In this document: one piece after another, positions 7,183 to 17,166 of the stretch
How the letters are laid out: each line of letters starts with the position of its first letter
How positions within the stretch are numbered: the first letter of the stretch is position 1
NCBI GenBank assembly: GCA_965248445.1
Contig: CBDFJG010000002.1
Span: 576,001 to 640,000 of the forward strand
Reading direction: 5' to 3'
From: Planctomycetota bacterium
Lineage (GTDB): Bacteria; Planctomycetota; JAJSAM01; JAJVHW01
Length of the DNA stretch: 64,000 nucleotides
The notes under the pieces: model-generated
The model's database searches: none
What the model saw: the letters and a program-made list of their open reading frames with translations, nothing else
Told to the model about the DNA's origin: nothing
Position numbers and translations under genes: made by a program

Positions 7183-7253
7183 TTCGTCAGCCTCTCAGAC
7201 GCCCCGCGATGTCGCCACCTTCGCCGTTTCCCATCCGCCGGTCCTCCCGGACA

Positions 7254-7838
7254 ATGGCGTTCGTGAAGCCTCCCCGCAAACCCGCCCGCTGGACCTGGCG
7301 GCTGCCGATCGAGGCGGTGTGGGGCCTCACGATCGTCGTGCTTCTGGCCACCGGGACGGTGCTGAAGCGTGACGAACGCTGCCGCGTCTGCGCGCACGAG
7401 CGCCACCTGCGGCGCGTCAGCTTGTCGATCCCCGGGAAGTTCGACGTTCCGTTCGCCTGGTGGCACGCCGAGGCGGCGGTGACCCACCTGCAGCGCGAGG
7501 TCTTCGGCGCGGAACACCGGCACCAGTACGCGGTCTCCGGTGCGTGGTCTCGCCGCTCCCTGTGGAGCGGCGAGACGGGAAGGGAGTGGAATGGCGACGG
7601 GTTGATCGCGCACTACTTCGAGAACGACCCCGAGTTCCGTGCGTTCGTGCTGGACCAACTCGCGCGCGGCGGGCTGACGCCCCAGCGGCTCACGGAACTC
7701 GTGTGGCACGATAAAGCGCTTTGCGCGACGCGCTCCGAGAACTGGCACTGGCGCTACGGAAGGGGCCAGCACGAGTTGATCGAGGCGCACTTCGGCGAGA
7801 GTTTCAACTACGGCGACCACGTGGGGCTCTGGTGGTGA
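7254..7838 (+). CDS. Hypothetical membrane-anchored protein with CxxC and HxH (paralog 1)
   Basis: PPRKPARWTWRLP, TM segment, CRVC, HRH; similar N-terminus to next gene. Confidence 0.65.
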   Translation: MAFVKPPRKPARWTWRLPIEAVWGLTIVVLLATGTVLKRDERCRVCAHERHLRRVSLSIPGKFDVPFAWWHAEAAVTHLQREVFGAEHRHQYAVSGAWSRRSLWSGETGREWNGDGLIAHYFENDPEFRAFVLDQLARGGLTPQRLTELVWHDKALCATRSENWHWRYGRGQHELIEAHFGESFNYGDHVGLWW

Positions 7839-7861
7839 CGGGCGCAGACTACGATGCAGGC

Positions 7862-8497
7862 GTGACCCCCGCGCCGGTACCTCCCCGCAAACCCGCCCTC
7901 TGGACCTGGCGGCTGCCGCTTCGCGTGTGGGCGGTGCTCGGACTCGTGGTGCTGGCCGGCTGCGGGTGGTACCTGCGCTACGAGTCTTCGAGCGGAGGCG
8001 AGTGCGGCGTCTGCCTGCGGTGGTGCTCGTCCAAGGAGTACGGTCTGGACCTGTTCGGGAAGGACCAGGTGGCGCTCTTCGAGACGGTCGATTGGGGCGC
8101 CGAATCCGTCATCTCGGCGAACCTGTTCCCTGCCGGTCACGAACACGATCCCCAGTACTTTTCCAGCAACTACACGAGCCGCTTCTCGGAGATCATCGGC
8201 TGCGGCTACCCGATCATGGCGCCCCTGGCCGAGCGCTTCACCGAGGACCTGGACTTCCGTGAGCGCGTCGTGGGCGCAGTGGAGAAGAAGCAGTTCTCGG
8301 CGGAGCGCGCGGCGCGAGTCCTGGCGGTCTCGGAGGACTTCCCGTACCCGGCGGACAAGGCGGTGATGCGCGACGCGCTCGAACTGCTGCGCGCGTGCTA
8401 CGGGGATGACTGGGACGACGTCGAGGTCGAGGGCCCAGCGTCCTGGGTGCTCGAGGACGCGGAATTCCTGCTCGACCCGGAGTGGATGGACGAATAG
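7862..8497 (+). CDS. Hypothetical membrane-anchored protein with CxxC and HxH (paralog 2); start may be GTG 7835
   Basis: PPRKPALWTWRLP, TM segment, CGVC, HEH. Confidence 0.65.
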   Translation: MTPAPVPPRKPALWTWRLPLRVWAVLGLVVLAGCGWYLRYESSSGGECGVCLRWCSSKEYGLDLFGKDQVALFETVDWGAESVISANLFPAGHEHDPQYFSSNYTSRFSEIIGCGYPIMAPLAERFTEDLDFRERVVGAVEKKQFSAERAARVLAVSEDFPYPADKAVMRDALELLRACYGDDWDDVEVEGPASWVLEDAEFLLDPEWMDE

Positions 8498-8511
8498 CGG
8501 CACGCGCCGGG

Positions 8512-9543
8512 CTACACGTCGCGCAGGACGCCGCGGAGCACCAGGAACGCGTGCTGCCGGTCAGGCAGTCCGTCGGTGTCGACGTCGTTCCAGTCCAGGC
8601 CCGCGAGGTCGGCGGGTCGATCCCCGTCCTCGCCGACGAACTGCGCGCCGACGAGCGTCGCCGGGGCGCCCCGGGCGCCGCGGAGGATCGCCCCCGAGAG
8701 ATCGGCTCCGTCGAAGTCCGCTCCCTCGACGAGCGCCTGCGACAGGTCGGCGTCGCGCAGGTCCGCATTGCAGAGGTGTGCGTCGCGCAGGTCGGCGCCG
8801 CGCAGGCTGACCCCGCGCAGACGCGCGTTGCGAAGTGACGCGCCGTGGAGCGAGAACCCGGAGAGGTCGACGTCGCGGAGGTCCGCGCCGAGCAGGTCCT
8901 GGCCGGCCAGGTCCTTGGCCTCGAGCAGTCTGCGGAGCGTCGCGATGTCCACGTGTCGCACGACGTAGCGCTCCTCGGTCCACGGATCGGCGCCGTTGTG
9001 GTAGCCGGCGGTCCGCTCCCAGTATCCGAGCTTGTCCTCCTGCAGCAGTTCGATGCGCCGCAGCCACTTCACCGACTTGAAGAAGTAGCGCGTGAACAAG
9101 ACAGAGCGAACCGGACCACCGTGCTCGGCCGGAAGCGGGATCGGACCGCCGCCCAGGTCTACGTGATCCGCGATCAGCACGTCGTTGCGCGCGATCTCGA
9201 TGGGCAGCGTCGTGTCGTGTCCGCGGCCGGACACGAACCGGACGAACCGCGTCTTCTTCTTCGGTCGTGCGCGATCGAGCAACTCCGAGAGAGCGACGCC
9301 GCCGAACGCCGTGTCCGGGCGCGACCAGCGCGTCACGCAGTGGATCGTGCCGCTCCGCGTCGTGCGAGGGAGACCGGCGAACGCGTCGTGCGAGAGGGTG
9401 AGCGGTTCCTTCACGAGGCCATCGACGGCCAGCGACCAAGTGCGGGCGTCGAACTCCTCGGGTTCCCGTTCGCCGATGCGCGGGAACGCGCGGGTCGACA
9501 GCTGGTTCGGGGGCAGGCGAGGCTCCTTCGCCACCTTGCCCAT
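8512..9543 (-). CDS. Molybdopterin-dependent oxidoreductase (sulfite oxidase/MsrP-like Mo domain) fused to pentapeptide repeats
   Basis: IHCVTRWS (Mo-ligand Cys), LPAEHGGPVR, FKSVKWLRRIEL, GYWERTAGYH; C-terminal ADLRD/ASLRN/ADLSQ repeats. Confidence 0.85.
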   Translation of the reverse strand: MGKVAKEPRLPPNQLSTRAFPRIGEREPEEFDARTWSLAVDGLVKEPLTLSHDAFAGLPRTTRSGTIHCVTRWSRPDTAFGGVALSELLDRARPKKKTRFVRFVSGRGHDTTLPIEIARNDVLIADHVDLGGGPIPLPAEHGGPVRSVLFTRYFFKSVKWLRRIELLQEDKLGYWERTAGYHNGADPWTEERYVVRHVDIATLRRLLEAKDLAGQDLLGADLRDVDLSGFSLHGASLRNARLRGVSLRGADLRDAHLCNADLRDADLSQALVEGADFDGADLSGAILRGARGAPATLVGAQFVGEDGDRPADLAGLDWNDVDTDGLPDRQHAFLVLRGVLRDV

Positions 9544-10247
9544 CAGCGCGCGAGGACCTTGTCGACGAACGTCTTCACGATGTCGGCGGCGCGGTTCATC
9601 TCGGGTTCGATGTGCGCACGGCGCGCGGCGAGCTGCTTGAACGAGTGATCGCCGCCGGGGACGACGTGCAGCGCACCCGGCAAGCGCAGCGACTTCCGCT
9701 TGCGCCGCAGGATGTCGAGATTGCAGAGCGCGTCGCGGTCGCCCTGGACGAACAACATCGGGGCGTGGACCGACTTCAGGTGATCCACGCGCAGCTGGTC
9801 TTGCTTGCCGGCGGGATGGAGCGGGTAGCCGAGGAAGATCAGCCCTGACGGCTGCACGCGGCCCGCCGCGACCAGCATCGAGGCGACGCGCCCCCCCATG
9901 CTCTTGCCGCCGAGGAACAGCGGTCCTGGGGGCGAGCCCGTGCGCTGGGACGATGCCGCCACGACATCGTGGTAGCAGTCGACGAGGAGATCCATCTTGT
10001 CGGGGGGCCGCCGTCCGCCTCCGACCGAGCGCTCCATGTAGGGGAAGTTCCAGCGCACGACGCCGATGCCGCGCTCGGCGAGCGCCGCGGCAAACCACTC
10101 CATGAACTCCGAGCGCACTCCGGCGCCGGCGCCATGCCCGAGCATGACGACGGGGGTCGTCTTGGCGATGTACTCCTGCGGGACGTCGATCACCGTCTGG
10201 ATCGCGCCGCCCCGGCGAAGCCTCAACGAGAAGCAGTGCTCGGCCAC
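9543..10247 (-). CDS. Alpha/beta-fold hydrolase (dienelactone hydrolase/KANL3-like family)
   Basis: GHGAG, GGKSMGG nucleophile elbow, LGYPLHP, QGDRD, GGDHSF triad elements. Confidence 0.85.
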   Translation of the reverse strand: MAEHCFSLRLRRGGAIQTVIDVPQEYIAKTTPVVMLGHGAGAGVRSEFMEWFAAALAERGIGVVRWNFPYMERSVGGGRRPPDKMDLLVDCYHDVVAASSQRTGSPPGPLFLGGKSMGGRVASMLVAAGRVQPSGLIFLGYPLHPAGKQDQLRVDHLKSVHAPMLFVQGDRDALCNLDILRRKRKSLRLPGALHVVPGGDHSFKQLAARRAHIEPEMNRAADIVKTFVDKVLAR

Positions 10248-10295
10248 GGGATCATTGTGACGGCAGGTGGGGGACAGGGGAACAGGTTGGGGCCG

Positions 10296-12164
10296 TTACT
10301 CGCCGGTGTCGTCGGCGCCGCGGCTCCGGATGAGCCGGACGCGCTTGGGGGGCCAGACGATCATGACCGGCTTGCCCACGAGACGGCTCCGGTGCACGGC
10401 TTGCTTCTCGCGGCTGTCCTGGCTGTTGCTCGAGTTGTCACCCAGCATGAAGAAGTCGTCCGGACCGAGCACCCACTCGTCGTCGTCGTAGTCGCTGGTC
10501 CAGTGCACATCCCGCTCGATGCGCGTGATCCGTGCCCGGGCGCCGCCGCCCGTGATCCGGACCTCGAAGTTGCCCGAGGGCGCCTGGCGGCGGGGGTACT
10601 CGGGCTGGGGCTGCTCGCTCTCGGCGTGCACGTCGTCTACGTCCAGGCGGATGATCCGGTCCACGTAGGCGAGCCGGACGTCGTAGTCCTCACCGGGCTT
10701 GATGCGCCCCTCGATACGGAACACCTGCTCGTCGTCGACGCGCAGCTCGATCGAGCCGTCGGACGCCGAGAGGATGGCGTCGACCCAGACCGACCCGCGG
10801 GCCAACCGCACGGTGATCTTCGAGTCGGCGTCGACCGGTCGGACGGTCAGCGAGAACCGCGCGTCGGGCACCTCCGGGAAGCCGTCGCGATCCTCGCCGG
10901 TCAGTTCGTCGTACGTGCGGTCGTCGACCGGCTCTATCAGGCGGAGGATCCCCTCGCCCCGCCCGCTGTCTCCCTCTGTGGGCGTCCCCTCGAATGTGCC
11001 GTCGGTGTGCAGCAGCCAGCGGCCCGTGGCCGACGTGAACAGGTCGGTCAGCCGGTCGCGGAACTCTTCGATGGCAAGTTCCTGATCGTCTTCGGCGTCT
11101 GTGCGGGCCCGCCGCCACTCCCCGCGCAGCGTCCACCAAGGGAAGAGCATCTCCTCGTAGAACCTGTCCCGCTTTCGCATCAGCCGCCCGGACAGATAGA
11201 TGTCGCCCTCGCGAATGCGCAGCCGGTCGCCCGGCAGGCCCATACACCGCTTGACGTAATTCTTCCGTTCGGTGCCCCACCCGTCGAACACGACGATCTC
11301 ACCGCGCTTGGGGGTCTTCGTGAGCCGGTTGACGAGGATGCGGTCGCCGTCCCGCTTGTCTCCGTGCAGCGTCGGCTCCATCGACCGCGTGGGGATGTGA
11401 TACGCGGACAACACCTGCAACCGCACGAACACGATGACGCCGAAGATCAGCAGCAGTATCCACGCGTCGTGTGCGAGCGATCCCTTCAGCGACTCGACCA
11501 GGCTCTGCGGGAACAGGTACGCCCGGCGCCCGGATGCGACGCGCCGCAAGTCGGTGCGCACCCGGTACGCGTCGCCGAAGTCCTTCACTGCCGCCTTCAG
11601 TGCGTCCTTCTCCGGCTCGCCCCCGTGCATGCGCGCCGCGACCGAGTCGGCCAGATGCTCCGCGACCTCGCGCCCCATGCGCGCGGCGAGAGGCGGGGAG
11701 TGGGCGAGCCCCGACGCGGCGCGCTCGGCGACCCGGCGGATCGATCTCGCGGAAGTCGCCGGCATACCGTCGAGTGCGAACGACATGTCGCCACTCACCC
11801 GGCCCGGCGCAGGGTCCCGGCCGTTGGCAGACGTCAACGCGTACGCGACGCGGGCGCCGGCCGGGCCTGGTATCGACGTGGGGGCTGCGCGTCCCTCCGC
11901 CGTCATGCGCAGCAGAAGGGGATGCAGCAGCCCTGCCCGGCGCGAGAGGAAGTCCGGCCAGGCCTCCTCGAAGCGGTGAGCGATCGCTGAGACGGACACC
12001 GGGCCATCCTGCAGGATCTCGGCCACGAGTCCCGCGGGGCTGGGCGCCTCGTCGGCACCCCCACCGGCGTCAGACGGGTCGGCGGCCTCGTCGTCCGTGC
12101 CACGGACGGGAGTGTCGACCGGAGAGTCGGCGGGGCGGTCGGCGGTGGGGAGGGTCTCGCTCAT
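10296..12164 (-). CDS. lepB: Signal peptidase I (S26) with N-terminal PadR-like wHTH and HAAS/permease-prefix-like domains
   Basis: IPTRSMEPTL (Ser), YVKRCMGLPGD (Lys), FMLGDNSSNSQDSR; N-terminal domains described in findings. Confidence 0.85.
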   Translation of the reverse strand: MSETLPTADRPADSPVDTPVRGTDDEAADPSDAGGGADEAPSPAGLVAEILQDGPVSVSAIAHRFEEAWPDFLSRRAGLLHPLLLRMTAEGRAAPTSIPGPAGARVAYALTSANGRDPAPGRVSGDMSFALDGMPATSARSIRRVAERAASGLAHSPPLAARMGREVAEHLADSVAARMHGGEPEKDALKAAVKDFGDAYRVRTDLRRVASGRRAYLFPQSLVESLKGSLAHDAWILLLIFGVIVFVRLQVLSAYHIPTRSMEPTLHGDKRDGDRILVNRLTKTPKRGEIVVFDGWGTERKNYVKRCMGLPGDRLRIREGDIYLSGRLMRKRDRFYEEMLFPWWTLRGEWRRARTDAEDDQELAIEEFRDRLTDLFTSATGRWLLHTDGTFEGTPTEGDSGRGEGILRLIEPVDDRTYDELTGEDRDGFPEVPDARFSLTVRPVDADSKITVRLARGSVWVDAILSASDGSIELRVDDEQVFRIEGRIKPGEDYDVRLAYVDRIIRLDVDDVHAESEQPQPEYPRRQAPSGNFEVRITGGGARARITRIERDVHWTSDYDDDEWVLGPDDFFMLGDNSSNSQDSREKQAVHRSRLVGKPVMIVWPPKRVRLIRSRGADDTGE

Positions 12165-12231
12165 CGGGGCTCGGACGGCTGATTGGACGGCCTACCCCGC
12201 TCCATCTGGAAGGACCAAGCGCCGGACACGC

Positions 12232-12828
12232 TCAGGACGGCGTCGCCGTCTCGTCCGTCGGCGTTCGCCGCAGCAGGACCAACAGCGCCACGAAGTCGTA
12301 GAGCGCGTGGACCAGGATCGGCGCGATCAGGTTCTCCGTCCAGAGCAGAAGAGCGCCGAGCAGCGCGCCGATCACGGTCGCCATGACGGCGTACCAGCGC
12401 GTGACGGCATGCACCATCCCGAATGCCACGGACGCCGCGGCCAGCGCGCCGAGCGGCCCGAGCGACTCGGCGAGCCAGGTCTGGAGCCAGCCGCGGAACA
12501 GGATCTCCTCGCCCAGTCCTGCGAGCACCGAAATCGCGAGTAACTCGTCCCATGTGCACTTGCCGAAGAGCGGGAGCAGGTACTCGTCGATGACCTGTCG
12601 CACCTCTGCGATCGGTCCCGAGCGTGCCCGCGCGGTGATGAAGGGAAGTGGGAGCAGCACTGCCGTCACGCCGAGGGCAAGGGCAATGTCCGTCCACCCG
12701 CCCTGTAGCAGCGGCAGCAAGCGCGTTCCGGTGAGCGCGGCGAGGGCGAACGCCGTGACGACGAGCCCTCCCTCGAACACCGCTCCGACGAGAAACGCCC
12801 GTCGCGCAACTTCCCGGTCGCTCTGCAT
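12232..12828 (-). CDS. CPBP (CAAX/Abi) family intramembrane protease
   Basis: GEEILFRG, FGMVH, HALYD motifs; multiple TM helices. Confidence 0.9.
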   Translation of the reverse strand: MQSDREVARRAFLVGAVFEGGLVVTAFALAALTGTRLLPLLQGGWTDIALALGVTAVLLPLPFITARARSGPIAEVRQVIDEYLLPLFGKCTWDELLAISVLAGLGEEILFRGWLQTWLAESLGPLGALAAASVAFGMVHAVTRWYAVMATVIGALLGALLLWTENLIAPILVHALYDFVALLVLLRRTPTDETATPS

Positions 12829-12896
12829 CGACGGGAGGGTACCTGCGCTAGACAGCTATCGAGGCGCGTGCCCCTACGTGCGTGCGGCGAGAGCTC

Positions 12897-14384
12897 TTAG
12901 AGCCGCTCGACGTAGCGGCGCCAGTCGCGCTCGAGCGAGTCGATGTCGTCGCCGAAGAACTCGGCGAACTCGGCGATCCGCTCGTGGACACCGCCCTTGC
13001 GCGCCGTGATCAGCTTGGATTCGCGCACGTAGCGGCTGAACGCGTCGGCGTGGCGGCGGGTGAGGTAGTGCGCCAGCGACCACGCCTCTGCGTAGACGAG
13101 AGACGCGCTGACGTCCGGGTCGTTGAACATCTCGCCCGTGACGATGCGGCGCAGGTCGCCGCCGATGCTCTGCGCCCAGTATCTCCGGACGTCGCGCAGT
13201 CGGCCGCGGTTCGGAGCTTCCAGGACGAAGTCCTGCTTCGAGTCGAGCTCGAACAGCGTCGCCAGTCCCTCCGTGAGCCAGCGCGGCTCGCCCATTCGGC
13301 CGACGCCGGTTGCGAACGCGAGCTGATGGCAGGCCTCGTGCGTCGTCGACGCGAGCGACTCGCGGCTCTCCCAGCCCCGCAATTCTTGTCCGAAGTCGCG
13401 CAGCTGGCCGGCGCGGGCGTCGAGCTTCTGGCGCTGCTCCTCCACCCAAGTGCGCGCCGCTTCGATCTCCTGCTTGAGCTGCTGGCGCTTCGCGAGGACG
13501 TCGACGGTGCGCTCGGTCATCGCGTCGAGCCGTTCCTCGAGAAGATCGAGCTCCTCCTCGTGCGCATCGACTTCCCGCCGGGTCTTTTCGAGTGCGGCGA
13601 TCTCGGTCTCGAGCTTCTCTCCCGCCTCGCGCGCTTGCGGCGACTGCGACGGATCGAACAACATCACGCGGCCGCTCTTCCCGACGAATAGGCCGCTCAT
13701 CCCGCGCAGCAGATCGCGCGAGACCCCCGTTGCGCGGACCCAGCGGTCATGGTCGCTGAACAGCATGATCTCGCGCCGCGACGGGATCGTCTTCGGCTCG
13801 ACTTGCAGCACGTAGGCGAGTTCGTGGAACTTGCTCCACGCCATCTCCAGCAGATCGCCGCGCAGTCGCGCGCTCTGGTGCGAGACGTCGTGCACGATAA
13901 TGAAGTGGTTCGTGCGCACGATCGTCGCGCCCTTGCCGAACTCGCTCACGAGGCGCTCGACGGAGCCCTCCTCGTCCGGCAACGCGTCGCGCAGCACGCG
14001 CCGGCGTTCCAGCGCCTCCGAGAGCACCGCGTCGTCCGGAGCGCTCTTGGCGGCATCGCGCAGGATCGTGTTGGCCAGGGAGGTCAGGCCGGCGGCGTCC
14101 GCCTCGGCCACCAACTCGAGCGCGCGCTCACTGTCCTCGGGGCCCAGCTCGAGCACGGCCTTGCGCAGCCGCTCCTCGTGGGTCTCCTTGCGCTCGATCC
14201 GATCGACGCTTTTCAGGGGGAAGGTCAGCGTCCCCGTAGAGAGCTCGACTCGGACGGTGTCGCCGTCCTCGGTCACGCGGCCCTCCACGCGGCCACCGTT
14301 CTTGAGGTGCACCACGTCAGCTGTGGCGATGGCCGCGAGGGCCAGCACCAATGCGCAGCGGGCGAAGGACTCGAGCTTGGACAT
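12897..14384 (-). CDS. Secreted DUF1570-like gluzincin metallopeptidase with coiled-coil insert
   Basis: Signal then ADVVHLKNGGRVEG; HEACHQLA...PRWLTEGLATLFE; YAEAWSLAHYL. Confidence 0.78.
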   Translation of the reverse strand: MSKLESFARCALVLALAAIATADVVHLKNGGRVEGRVTEDGDTVRVELSTGTLTFPLKSVDRIERKETHEERLRKAVLELGPEDSERALELVAEADAAGLTSLANTILRDAAKSAPDDAVLSEALERRRVLRDALPDEEGSVERLVSEFGKGATIVRTNHFIIVHDVSHQSARLRGDLLEMAWSKFHELAYVLQVEPKTIPSRREIMLFSDHDRWVRATGVSRDLLRGMSGLFVGKSGRVMLFDPSQSPQAREAGEKLETEIAALEKTRREVDAHEEELDLLEERLDAMTERTVDVLAKRQQLKQEIEAARTWVEEQRQKLDARAGQLRDFGQELRGWESRESLASTTHEACHQLAFATGVGRMGEPRWLTEGLATLFELDSKQDFVLEAPNRGRLRDVRRYWAQSIGGDLRRIVTGEMFNDPDVSASLVYAEAWSLAHYLTRRHADAFSRYVRESKLITARKGGVHERIAEFAEFFGDDIDSLERDWRRYVERL

Positions 14385-14438
14385 GACCTTCTCGGATCGG
14401 CACGGGGGACCCGCAGAGTCGAGCGCTAATCTCGGTAA

Positions 14439-14831
14439 ATGCACGATCGGAGCCTGAGATGGGTGCGTCGCGGAGCCTGGATGTGCCTCGGCGTCGGCCT
14501 CCTCCCCGGCTGGCGGGGGGACCTCGCTCCGGTGCCGCACGGGTCCGTCCTGGCCGCAGCGCGTGCCTCGCCGAGCGGCTCCGTCGTGGGCGTCGAGGTC
14601 CGCGACGCGGCTGGGGGGACGTGGCATGCGCAGTATGTCGGGAGCGGGGCGGCGAGGGTGCTGCGCGGCCTCGGGCTCGGCGGATCGGTGGCGTCCCTCG
14701 TGCCGCCGGACCACGCGGCGCGGATCGTCGACGGCAAGGGGGCGGGCTACTACGCCGTCGAACCGTCGATGCGATGGCCGTGGTGGTGGCCCGGCGGCGG
14801 CGTTGACTGGATCAGCGCGGAGGCTGACTGA
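14439..14831 (+). CDS. Hypothetical protein (start uncertain)
   Basis: High GC at third codon positions in this frame; fills the gap between divergent genes; no recognisable motif. Confidence 0.4.
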   Translation: MHDRSLRWVRRGAWMCLGVGLLPGWRGDLAPVPHGSVLAAARASPSGSVVGVEVRDAAGGTWHAQYVGSGAARVLRGLGLGGSVASLVPPDHAARIVDGKGAGYYAVEPSMRWPWWWPGGGVDWISAEAD

Positions 14832-15112
14832 TTGGTCGAGGGGCCAGGAATCGTCCTCTTCCGAGGTCGCTTCGCGGCTCCGAGTGTCCTCGCATGGAGA
14901 CACCAGTTCCAAAGGCGCACGCGGCACGTCCGCTGCTGGCTTTCAGACGGGAAATCGGGAGACGGAGGAGCGATCCTCCGGTCTCTCCGTGCACACCGGG
15001 CGAATGCACGCTGGAACCCGTGCGCGTACCGAGCAGTCGGATGGATCGTTATGGACCGGACAAGTCGAGACGGATGTTGGGCCCGGCTGAGCCGGGAGAG
15101 GTGAGTACGAGA

Positions 15113-16756
15113 ATGAGCAACAAGACGAACTGGACGCTGGTGCTGAGCCTCGGGGTCGCGATCTTCGCCGCCCCCGCGGCATGGGCGCCCGTCGTGCCGA
15201 CGGCGCAAGCCGCCGACACGACTCCCGCGGACTGGGAGAAGCAGTGGGACCGCAAGCTCAAGGAAGCGGCGAAGAAGTACATCTCGCTGTCCAACAAGTG
15301 CGCCAAGGTGGGGCTCGAGCGGACCGGCTCGATGGTGCGCCGCCACGCGCTGCGCTACCAGGGTGAGGACTCCGAGCTGCGCTCGTATTTCGGGTATGAG
15401 AAGCGCGAGGGGGAGTGGGTGGTCGCCAACGAGATCGTCCGCGATCAGCTGAAAGCCCTGATCGACGACGCGGACCCCAACAACGCGAAGTTCCAGAAGA
15501 CCCTGATGAGGACTCACGACACGGTCGCGAAGCTCTTCAAGGGACTCGCCGCGAAGGCCACCAGGATGGCGCGGGACGACGCCGAGAACAAGTCGAAGTG
15601 GGAGGAGTTCGCGATCCGCGGCTGGCAGCTCACCATCGAGAGCGCCGCCCCGGGCAGCAAGCTCGCCGTCGAGGGCCACAAGGCGCTCGGCCACCCCAAG
15701 TTCGGCGGCAAGTACGTCTGGCCGGAGTACCTCGACCACGTCAAGGCGCGCAAGGAGTCCAAGCTCGCCGGCGAAGCGATCGCCGCGAAGGAGTACCCCA
15801 CTGAGCCGATCGAGCCGGAAGGCCTGATCGTCGAGGCCGGCTTCAGCCCGCAGGGCATGAAGTCCAAGCACTTCGTCATCAACTCGACGCACGGGGTCGA
15901 GCACGCAAAGCGGCTCGCCATGTGGGCCGAGCGCGCGGTGGACGACATGATCGATCGCTACGGGCTACCCGAGAACGTCCGCGAGCGTCATGGCCTGCGC
16001 AAGCTCGACATCCTGAAGGGGGGTGACGACGAGCTGCGCCAGTACCTGATGAAGGGTGCGAAGTGGGAGAAGAGGCGCGTCGATACCACGCTCAAGCGCG
16101 GCATCCACGGCACGAGCGCGCAGTCCGGCACGTATGTCGCGGGTGCCGGACTCGGTGCGAGCGCCGACGACATCGTGATCCACCGCACGTCGCACGCCGT
16201 GACGGCGGCCACGAGGGCCCTCGCGCTCGCCGATGTCGGCCCCCACATCGGCCACGACCCCAATTCGACCGAGCCCTGGCTGGACGAGACGATCACCAGT
16301 GACGTGTCGCGCCGTCTGACGGCGAACGTGGTGTGGCGCTGCATCTCGTTCGGACGGTACGGGAACGACTTGCCGGCCCGCCCGGGCACGGACGTCTGGA
16401 TCAGCCTCGCCCGCCGCCAGGTTGTCCTCGACAACGATGTCGACATGAAGGACCTCTGGCGGAAGCCGTCGATGAATGAACTCGACGGTCCTTCGACCGT
16501 CAAGGGCTACGCGATGGTGCAGTTCCTCTTCGAGGACGACGCCGTCAAGGCGCAGAAGTTCATCTGGCACGCGCTGGCGCACGGCACACCTGCCGGCGTC
16601 GTCGAGGTGTACGGCGACTGGCTCGGCACACCCAATCCGGGTGCGCCCGACGCCGACGCGGGTCGCGCGATGTTCATGCAGCCCGAGTACACGGACGCGA
16701 TGGACGAACTCGACCGCCGCTACCGCAAGTGGATCCTCCGCTCGTACGATGGGTGA
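15113..16756 (+). CDS. Secreted DUF1570-like protein with degenerate zinc motif
   Basis: Signal MSNKTNWTLVLSLGVAIFAAPAAWA; IHRTSH...PWLDE; GYAMVQFL; strong codon bias. Confidence 0.7.
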   Translation: MSNKTNWTLVLSLGVAIFAAPAAWAPVVPTAQAADTTPADWEKQWDRKLKEAAKKYISLSNKCAKVGLERTGSMVRRHALRYQGEDSELRSYFGYEKREGEWVVANEIVRDQLKALIDDADPNNAKFQKTLMRTHDTVAKLFKGLAAKATRMARDDAENKSKWEEFAIRGWQLTIESAAPGSKLAVEGHKALGHPKFGGKYVWPEYLDHVKARKESKLAGEAIAAKEYPTEPIEPEGLIVEAGFSPQGMKSKHFVINSTHGVEHAKRLAMWAERAVDDMIDRYGLPENVRERHGLRKLDILKGGDDELRQYLMKGAKWEKRRVDTTLKRGIHGTSAQSGTYVAGAGLGASADDIVIHRTSHAVTAATRALALADVGPHIGHDPNSTEPWLDETITSDVSRRLTANVVWRCISFGRYGNDLPARPGTDVWISLARRQVVLDNDVDMKDLWRKPSMNELDGPSTVKGYAMVQFLFEDDAVKAQKFIWHALAHGTPAGVVEVYGDWLGTPNPGAPDADAGRAMFMQPEYTDAMDELDRRYRKWILRSYDG

Positions 16757-16796: not shown

Positions 16797-17113
16797 CCAA
16801 GGGGCCAGTGCTGATCGCACTGGCCACTTCCCGTACCTCCCCCGGCGCCCCTGAACGAACGGCCGCGGCCCGAGTGCGCGCGCCAGCGCACGAGGGAGCG
16901 GAAGCGGTAAACAACCGCTTCCGCAGCGGCATGGGTGAGAGCGGACCCGCCGAAGGGGTCCACCTGACCAGTTAGCACCAAGGGGCCGATGCGATCGCCT
17001 CGGCCCCAACTGACTCCTCCCCGGCGGGTCCGGTCGCACGGCCGCGGCCCGAGTGCGCGCGCCAGCGCACGAGGGAGCGGAAGCGGTAAACAACCGCTTC
17101 CGCAGCGGCATGG
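16797..17113. repeat. Tandem structured repeat: two about 180-bp units sharing an identical 76-bp core
   Basis: 16859-16934 is identical to 17038-17113; upstream hairpins related but with compensatory changes. Confidence 0.92.
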
Positions 17114-17166
17114 ACGAGGGGGGGGGGGGCGACCGTTCGGACACGCGCCGCCCCAGTCATCCCTCA

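Follow-up and report, generated by a model that had tools for sequence, protein, structure and literature searches.

The window analysed here is the whole 64,000-nt stretch of an uncultured Planctomycetota genome (G000; assembly GCA_965248445.1, contig CBDFJG010000002.1, positions 576,001-640,000). Its minus strand carries, at window positions 10296..12164, one uninterrupted reading frame for a 622-aa protein that combines a PadR-type winged helix (wHTH), a HAAS domain, a transmembrane (TM) helix and an S26 peptidase with a lectin-like insert, as delimited by the ORF, HMMs, AlphaFold and contigs from sequencing runs. Contigs from three of the four runs cover the entire stretch and those of the fourth cover the ORF, and they show 0 differences at any base; the four runs come from one sample, possibly the source of the assembly, and hence are not independent. 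In the AlphaFold model (mean pLDDT 88), the wHTH occupies aa 43-110, the HAAS helices aa 136-210 and the membrane helix aa 222-251. The protein has only one hydrophobic stretch, with its peak in scanning windows starting at aa 234-236, and from this and the model the single TM helix is placed at about aa 234-253 (11406..11465, minus strand like all parts of the gene).

The N-terminal part of the peptidase follows the TM helix (aa 254-333; 11166..11405; HMMs, Foldseek and motifs) and contains SMEPTL with Ser261 and YVKR with Lys305. The C-terminal part (aa 560-612; 10329..10487; HMM and motifs) has GDNS at 575 and the box G575-R585, GDNSSNSQDSR. The protein matches TIGR02227 with 106.8 bits (cut-off 47) and PF10502 with 104.3 bits (cut-off 22.9), and Foldseek aligns its peptidase part with the E. 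coli signal peptidase structures 1B12/3S04 (E 4e-8). This bears out the earlier note on this DNA, which had read an intact-looking S26 signal peptidase after one TM helix. By family HMMs, catalytic dyad and membrane anchor, the 622-aa protein is an S26A signal peptidase I with predicted activity, and its topology, judged from the S26 family, would be N-in/C-out. The catalytic Ser and Lys motifs are found in all 47 of the 49 listed homologous proteins that reach the peptidase; the other two are N-terminal fragments. An inserted beta-sandwich with a ConA-like lectin/CBM66-like fold (about aa 340-555; 10500..11147; AlphaFold and Foldseek) was absent from the earlier note. Foldseek compares it with CBM66 4azz/4b1m (rmsd 3.8, TM score to target 0.66-0.67), and similar inserts occur, by similarity, in other large S26 proteins of G000.

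Databases label such HAAS-TM-S26 proteins simply "signal peptidase I". A separate canonical lepB, for which the earlier note had suggested a check, is present in G000: a multi-TM LepB is encoded directly after a lepA-like gene (C3:1407844-1411807), which we take to be lepA from its motif. The genome presumably has two further S26 genes, one for a similar LepB on C4 and a short one next to a sodN-like gene. In a tree of 31 chosen rows, a branch with 98% SH-aLRT support separates lepA-linked S26 proteins from HAAS-bearing or sigma-linked ones, with one unlabelled row on the lepA side. The 622-aa gene is not beside lepA and falls on the other side of that branch, so a housekeeping LepB with an odd leader was rejected. 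On these sequence grounds, we class the protein as an accessory signal peptidase of type I, apart from housekeeping LepB. It has the Ser/Lys dyad motifs, membrane anchor and fold in common with LepB (S26A; E. coli 1B12/3S04), but adds a 230-aa cytoplasmic PadR-HAAS extension and a 215-aa lectin-like insert.

The PadR-HAAS extension

The PadR-type winged helix (aa 43-110; 11835..12038; profile, fold searches and AlphaFold) is joined by a variable linker (aa 111-135; 11760..11834; alignment), which is 17-31 aa long and often Pro-rich among homologs, to the HAAS or permease-prefix domain (aa 136-212; 11529..11759; NF038403 and AlphaFold). The 622-aa protein itself scores poorly on Pfam PF03551 (12.1 bits, E 0.2, aa 49-113), under the cut-off of 27 bits. 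Its fused orthologs reach 36-38 bits at best on the same model, above the cut-off, and the separate padR genes of split loci score 39.5-49.5 bits. When a profile of 30 fused N-termini was compared with solved structures, the best 30 matches were all PadR-family (E from 1.6e-4). PadR proteins also came top in fold searches with the N-terminal model, with modest scores (Foldseek E 7e-3; Z 6.5, rmsd 2.1 over 70), and the modelled wHTH fold is intact at pLDDT > 90. Orthologs, profile, model and fold searches thus agree with the PadR-like wHTH proposed in the earlier note, and as modelled the segment is a winged helix nearest PadR, despite its Pfam score.

The HAAS assignment of that note also stands, through NF038403 (permease prefix; aa 156-207, 34.2 bits, cut-off 30). 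Pfam HAAS PF22564 gave no match to the 622-aa protein at E<=5 and up to 33.8 bits in a split homolog. The model has helices at 157-180, 185-196 and 199-210, broken at F196-G197-D198; the residue following the GD is Ala in the 622-aa protein and Pro in 8 of 16 aligned sequences. There was no solved structure for the HAAS part among the matches listed, where wHTH matches dominated.

Fused and split forms

HAAS has been described as always going with a standalone PadR (Ravi et al., 10.1101/2020.09.24.301986 = PMC11237479). That paper, in its accessible text, describes HAAS-PadR pairs as widespread, suggests them as an alternative to two-component systems, and names FtsX/MacB, FtsW/RodA, VanZ, PspC, Toastrack, pentapeptide and multi-TM proteins as HAAS partners. 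Its main text contains neither "peptidase" nor "protease", and "S26" is absent from its supplement. A standalone padR beside the HAAS gene is not found in the G000 locus, and is found in 5 of the 17 genomes of the window's class.

Each of these 17 genomes has exactly one gene for HAAS-TM-S26, by a profile built from 16 of them, and the uncultured class is thereby marked by an accessory signal peptidase in single copy. PadR is fused to it in 10 genomes (seven of family f1 and three of f2) and encoded by a separate upstream padR in five (four of f3 and one of f2), while in two the locus is cut by a contig end. The split padR and HAAS-S26 genes are coupled by a stop/start overlap, GTGA or ATGA, which in G015 runs via a short duplicated frame. 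This short frame (L042:3680-3810) lies between padR and HAAS-S26, repeats the first codons of the HAAS gene and is coupled by ATGA at both ends; it looks like a local duplication.

Outside the class, a search of 401 genomes of the phylum (E<=1e-11) matched 21, namely the 17 class genomes, three genomes of family f28 and one with an ordinary S26 that matched only near the TM. Family f28 belongs to a second class and has the fused gene in 23 of 29 genomes, compared with 0 of 11 in its sister family. The wHTH is in frame in 19 of the 23 f28 loci by profile and in three more by alignment. The search for the same architecture that the earlier note had proposed thus finds the fusion in nine other class genomes as well as in f28, and each of the 10 complete fused class members and of the 21 f28 proteins tabulated keeps the wHTH in frame, at identities of 20-40%. 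The N-terminal 220 aa matched 23 of 1.84 billion database representatives, mostly fused proteins of 594-704 aa together with forms of 461-477 aa that start at HAAS. Among the matches listed in a search for homolog loci, 12 of the 80 loci kept were true members (11 titled Planctomycetota or Planctomycetia and one "uncultured bacterium"), and in the other 68 the profiles detected neither HAAS nor PadR. ESM Atlas gave no usable match. No PadR-HAAS fused to other effectors was found in a weak search that scored 8000 candidates, in which the A4 profile retrieved five proteins, all S26. Two HAAS-TM-S26 proteins, P0018 and P0019, sit on a separate, well-supported branch.

Compared with the HAAS-PadR dyads in the accessible text of PMC11237479, the PadR-type wHTH and the N-terminal HAAS on a membrane protein are common features, and the split relatives even have the same two-gene order; the 622-aa protein differs in its signal peptidase effector, its fused PadR and the lack of a dimerisation helix. 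The earlier note knew of no description of this architecture, and we found none either in the literature searched, whose scope left subscription journals largely outside. Within that literature, PadR-HAAS fused to a signal peptidase is a real, conserved and previously undescribed variant of HAAS-PadR systems. It adds a protease to the HAAS partners and documents a graded decay of the DNA-binding domain after fusion. A single origin of all fused forms was rejected (AU p 6.8e-13); the fused forms are not one clade, which takes at least 2 changes. The trees are quick searches with an open backbone, and give a minimum of changes rather than a direction or a count of fusion events. That the split form is ancestral we infer not from the tree but from the family rule of the HAAS paper and from the split PadRs, which are the most canonical ones.

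An ordinary padR elsewhere in G000 (C2:502.5-503.9 kb; 70.5 bits) overlaps a downstream membrane gene whose N-terminus is HAAS-like by eye, without an NF038403 match. This PadR keeps both tyrosines, RKYY and the dimer helix, and the pair is followed by what we take to be an IS66-like transposase fragment.

Predicted HAAS-PadR contact and DNA-binding residues

For the action of HAAS on PadR, the accessible text of PMC11237479 offers no more than a proposal, namely PadR release; the corresponding text of a later paper (PMC12419801) repeats this model, and that of PMC4517056 gives a genetic link only, connecting LftR with the DUF1048 protein LftS. We co-folded HAAS and PadR of the split genome G011 and obtained an ipSAE of 0.83 (runs 0.84/0.83/0.83), with 0.00 for the best of three controls. 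This mark is reached by 116 of 157 solved pairs and 2 of 215 mismatched pairs, a calibration only roughly applicable here, where the alignments included fused members. Contacts agree to at least 96% between the runs, partner pLDDT is at least 86, and a search for a solved HAAS-PadR complex as a possible source of the prediction found none. The predicted interface comprises PadR residues 22-24, 38-48 and wing residues 69-72. Going by motif and the partly accessible PMC3506622, Tyr20, Tyr42 and Lys67 of B. subtilis PadR correspond to Tyr24, Tyr46 and Arg71 of G011 PadR. Because the interface includes these mapped DNA hot spots, HAAS would cover the DNA-binding face of PadR, and it is through this face that HAAS is predicted to bind PadR.

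For the fused protein, aa 38-222 were modelled as one fold (pLDDT 93, pTM 0.90), and on this pTM the HAAS and wHTH are likely docked in cis. Its HAAS is identical to that of split G011 at 11 of 11 checked positions (E166, H170, D173, D195, F196, G197, D198, D205, L206, R208 and G212). Since HAAS and DNA would use one surface of PadR, conservation on that surface is ambiguous.

His can stand in for Tyr in DNA contacts. According to the accessible part of PMC5728393, B. subtilis PadR contacts DNA through the hot spots Tyr20, Tyr42 and Lys67/68, and Tyr42Ala cuts its affinity >100-fold. The 622-aa protein has Ser59, His81 and Arg105 at the Tyr20, Tyr42 and Lys67 positions as inferred by motif, so that one of three hot spots is kept. 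Among relatives, which are kin rather than independent samples, so that counts are given without a statistic, the Tyr42 position holds Tyr in 5/5 split PadRs, 6/6 fused f2, 4/18 fused f1 and 0/21 f28 proteins. The residues replacing it include His in eight, Phe in three and Leu in three fused f1 proteins, and are His in all 21 of f28. Tyr or Phe at the Tyr20 position is found in 5/5 split, 1/6 fused f2, 8/18 fused f1 and 0/21 f28 proteins, and the wing Arg in 5/5, 5/6, 18/18 and 0/21, respectively. These counts leave out G351, which has His at the Tyr42 position by alignment, and G410, whose protein is without its N-terminus. Tyr42 is kept in all six fused f2 proteins, which shows that fusion need not cost a wHTH its DNA-binding residues.

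The 622-aa protein shares the wHTH fold and a G-x-L-[Y/H]-x-x-L pattern in helix 3 with PadR subfamily 2 (LmrR, bcPadR1/2; PMC3506622) and with B. subtilis PadR (PMC5728393), as described in the accessible parts of these papers. It differs from them in the replacement of Tyr20 and Tyr42, in its covalent tie to a membrane protein, and in the absence of the C-terminal dimerisation helix, in whose place the AlphaFold model has a coil linker after the wing. The dimer helix is absent from all five split PadRs and from the fused relatives as well, and no shared spaced palindrome was found in the 160 nt upstream of 15 loci (10 fused, five split). Given these two absences, even the split PadRs are only putative repressors.

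No sigma-70-like promoter was found in window positions 8300-15200. Promoter-like sites of the form TTGAC...TG-N-TAG..T precede three split padR genes (L038, L040, L042), and a -10-like hexamer lies 6-7 nt before the start codon of five fused genes (L028, L033, L034, L039, L043), in positions that resemble leaderless transcripts; both are absent in the window.

Candidate roles and the gene neighbourhood

Hot-spot tyrosines are lost in many proteins of f1, the family of G000, and throughout f28 while HAAS interface residues persist, which makes it likely that the wHTH is docked and decaying rather than a released transcription factor. Our preferred reading, to which we give a probability of about 0.55, is that the wHTH of the 622-aa protein is docked, decays as a DNA binder and is kept for a role at the protein level. 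In the ancestral two-gene form, HAAS would sequester PadR at the membrane in the manner of an anti-repressor. Fusion would then lock the contact in cis and relax selection on DNA recognition, such that the f1 wHTH is likely no longer a sequence-specific repressor, and the docked PadR-HAAS might serve as a cytoplasmic module that controls or positions the peptidase. The earlier note had offered two possibilities, release of the wHTH or control of peptidase activity. Self-cleavage that frees the wHTH was rejected, as the catalytic site would lie across the membrane from it under the family topology. Release of a DNA-binding wHTH is further weakened by Ser59 and His81, the missing dimer helix and the predicted docking on HAAS. 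The second possibility, that the extension controls the activity or the placement of the peptidase, is the better fit, as a candidate role.

The best candidate for a substrate of the peptidase is an ECF anti-sigma factor encoded adjacent to it in other lineages. Of the 23 f28 loci, 19 have an ECF sigma gene directly downstream and 19 have a gene for a single-TM anti-sigma factor, with the four misses at contig edges. HAAS-less S26 proteins of the same accessory group directly precede the same sigma in four genomes (G018, G057, G083 and G020). Fifteen of the 17 genomes of the window's class have the orthologous sigma; in six of these it is encoded about 5-57 kb downstream, on the contig and strand of the HAAS-S26 gene. 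According to the accessible text of PMC8844934, signal peptidases of Bacillus cut anti-sigma factors at site 1 in the SipP-RsiP-sigmaP and SipS/SipT-RsiV-sigmaV systems. It is possible, if on balance improbable, that the 622-aa protein is a dedicated site-1 protease of this conserved sigma/anti-sigma pair with PadR-HAAS as its cytoplasmic control; this would be compatible with a docked, decaying wHTH and would name its substrate. Against it, the sigma gene adjoins the HAAS-S26 gene in none of the 17 class genomes, the G000 pair sits on another contig (C4:339708-341159, about 339.7-341.2 kb), the accessory S26 proteins of G049 and G102 have no adjoining sigma, and no conserved Ala-X-Ala site was seen by eye after the anti-sigma TM. 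What the Sip systems have in common with the present one is a peptidase-ECF link, here by gene order in relatives; unlike theirs, it is by gene neighbourhood only and broken in G000, and Sip peptidases with PadR-HAAS are not described in that text. As a side observation, Gly-Gly forms the C-terminus of many of these anti-sigma proteins, which may reflect no more than overlap with the ribosome site of the next gene.

A bolder combination, which we consider unlikely to hold in full, is that the protein is a protease of envelope signalling, that HAAS is a DNA-mimicking anti-repressor, and that PadR-HAAS, once a gene switch, became joined to a lectin-bearing signal peptidase more than once and now controls site-1 cleavage of the conserved ECF anti-sigma. 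If this were true, the mechanism of the widespread HAAS-PadR pairs could be read from the natural fusions, with the DNA-binding face of PadR hidden by HAAS. With the natural fused and split versions, the confidently predicted interface and the named residues, a pair of proteins of some 85 residues each is enough to put the HAAS-PadR mechanism to the test.

The 622-aa protein could also be a working one-component regulator, in which the HAAS-wHTH contact loosens on an outside signal, sensed through the lectin-like insert or as peptidase load, and a tethered or clipped wHTH binds DNA. The intact wHTH fold, the wing Arg throughout f1, PadR scores above the cut-off in some fused homologs and the published proposal of PadR release from HAAS speak for it, and with Tyr42 kept in every fused f2 protein it is more possible in f2. 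Also in its favour is the upstream neighbour, a CPBP/Rce1-like intramembrane protease (12232..12828, minus strand; Pfam and locus comparison), which is found in five of the seven f1 genomes with upstream DNA, G000 included. However, the CPBP gene is missing from all f2, f3 and f28 loci, and we rejected it as a fixed part of the system. The replaced hot-spot tyrosines, the missing dimer helix, the loss of both tyrosines and the wing Arg in 21 of 21 f28 proteins, and the lack of a shared operator-like palindrome upstream of the fused and split loci also argue against such a regulator, which we regard as unlikely.

The fusion might instead be passive: a stop was lost between coupled genes, and nothing but its packing on HAAS has preserved a functionless PadR. 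Given the stop/start overlap of the split genes, one small change would suffice, and the fused forms that are not one clade and the decay of the DNA hot spots are in keeping with this. However, the wHTH has stayed in frame across both classes and has an invariant His in f28; its loss would be easy, and HAAS would then be without a role. For these reasons we find passive fusion quite doubtful, and prefer a docked wHTH with a retained role. An assembly or gene-calling artefact, which a high-GC MAG and the sub-cut-off PadR match might suggest, has a negligible chance, since the same in-frame fusion recurs in nine other genomes of the class, in a second class and in many proteins of the databases; the stop or frameshift between the domains that the earlier note had considered was looked for and not found, and a frameshift or mis-joined ORF is refuted by the independent genomes, while the run contigs match the ORF at every base.

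By way of context, the downstream neighbour encodes an alpha/beta hydrolase (PF20408; 9543..10247, minus strand; Pfam and locus comparison), found in six of eight f1 loci, G000 included, and in f1 only. A molybdopterin oxidoreductase (MsrP-like) with pentapeptide repeats follows at window 8512-9546 (minus strand), two genes downstream of the peptidase in six f1 loci. Two tandem paralogous small genes without a Pfam match (window 7200-7835 and 7715-8497, plus strand) have a 39-nt repeat of 97% near both starts. Rfam gave no match within the window. Dispersed REP-like GC-rich repeats lie at window 1065, 17260, 44131 and 57418. On the other side of the locus is a divergent pair, a DUF1570 protein (12897-14927, minus strand) and a 620-aa gene without a Pfam match (14894-16756, plus strand); the gap after the latter holds a 105-nt direct repeat (90%) at window 16840-16944 and 17019-17123, and the pair is kept beside the peptidase locus in 5-6 f1 genomes.
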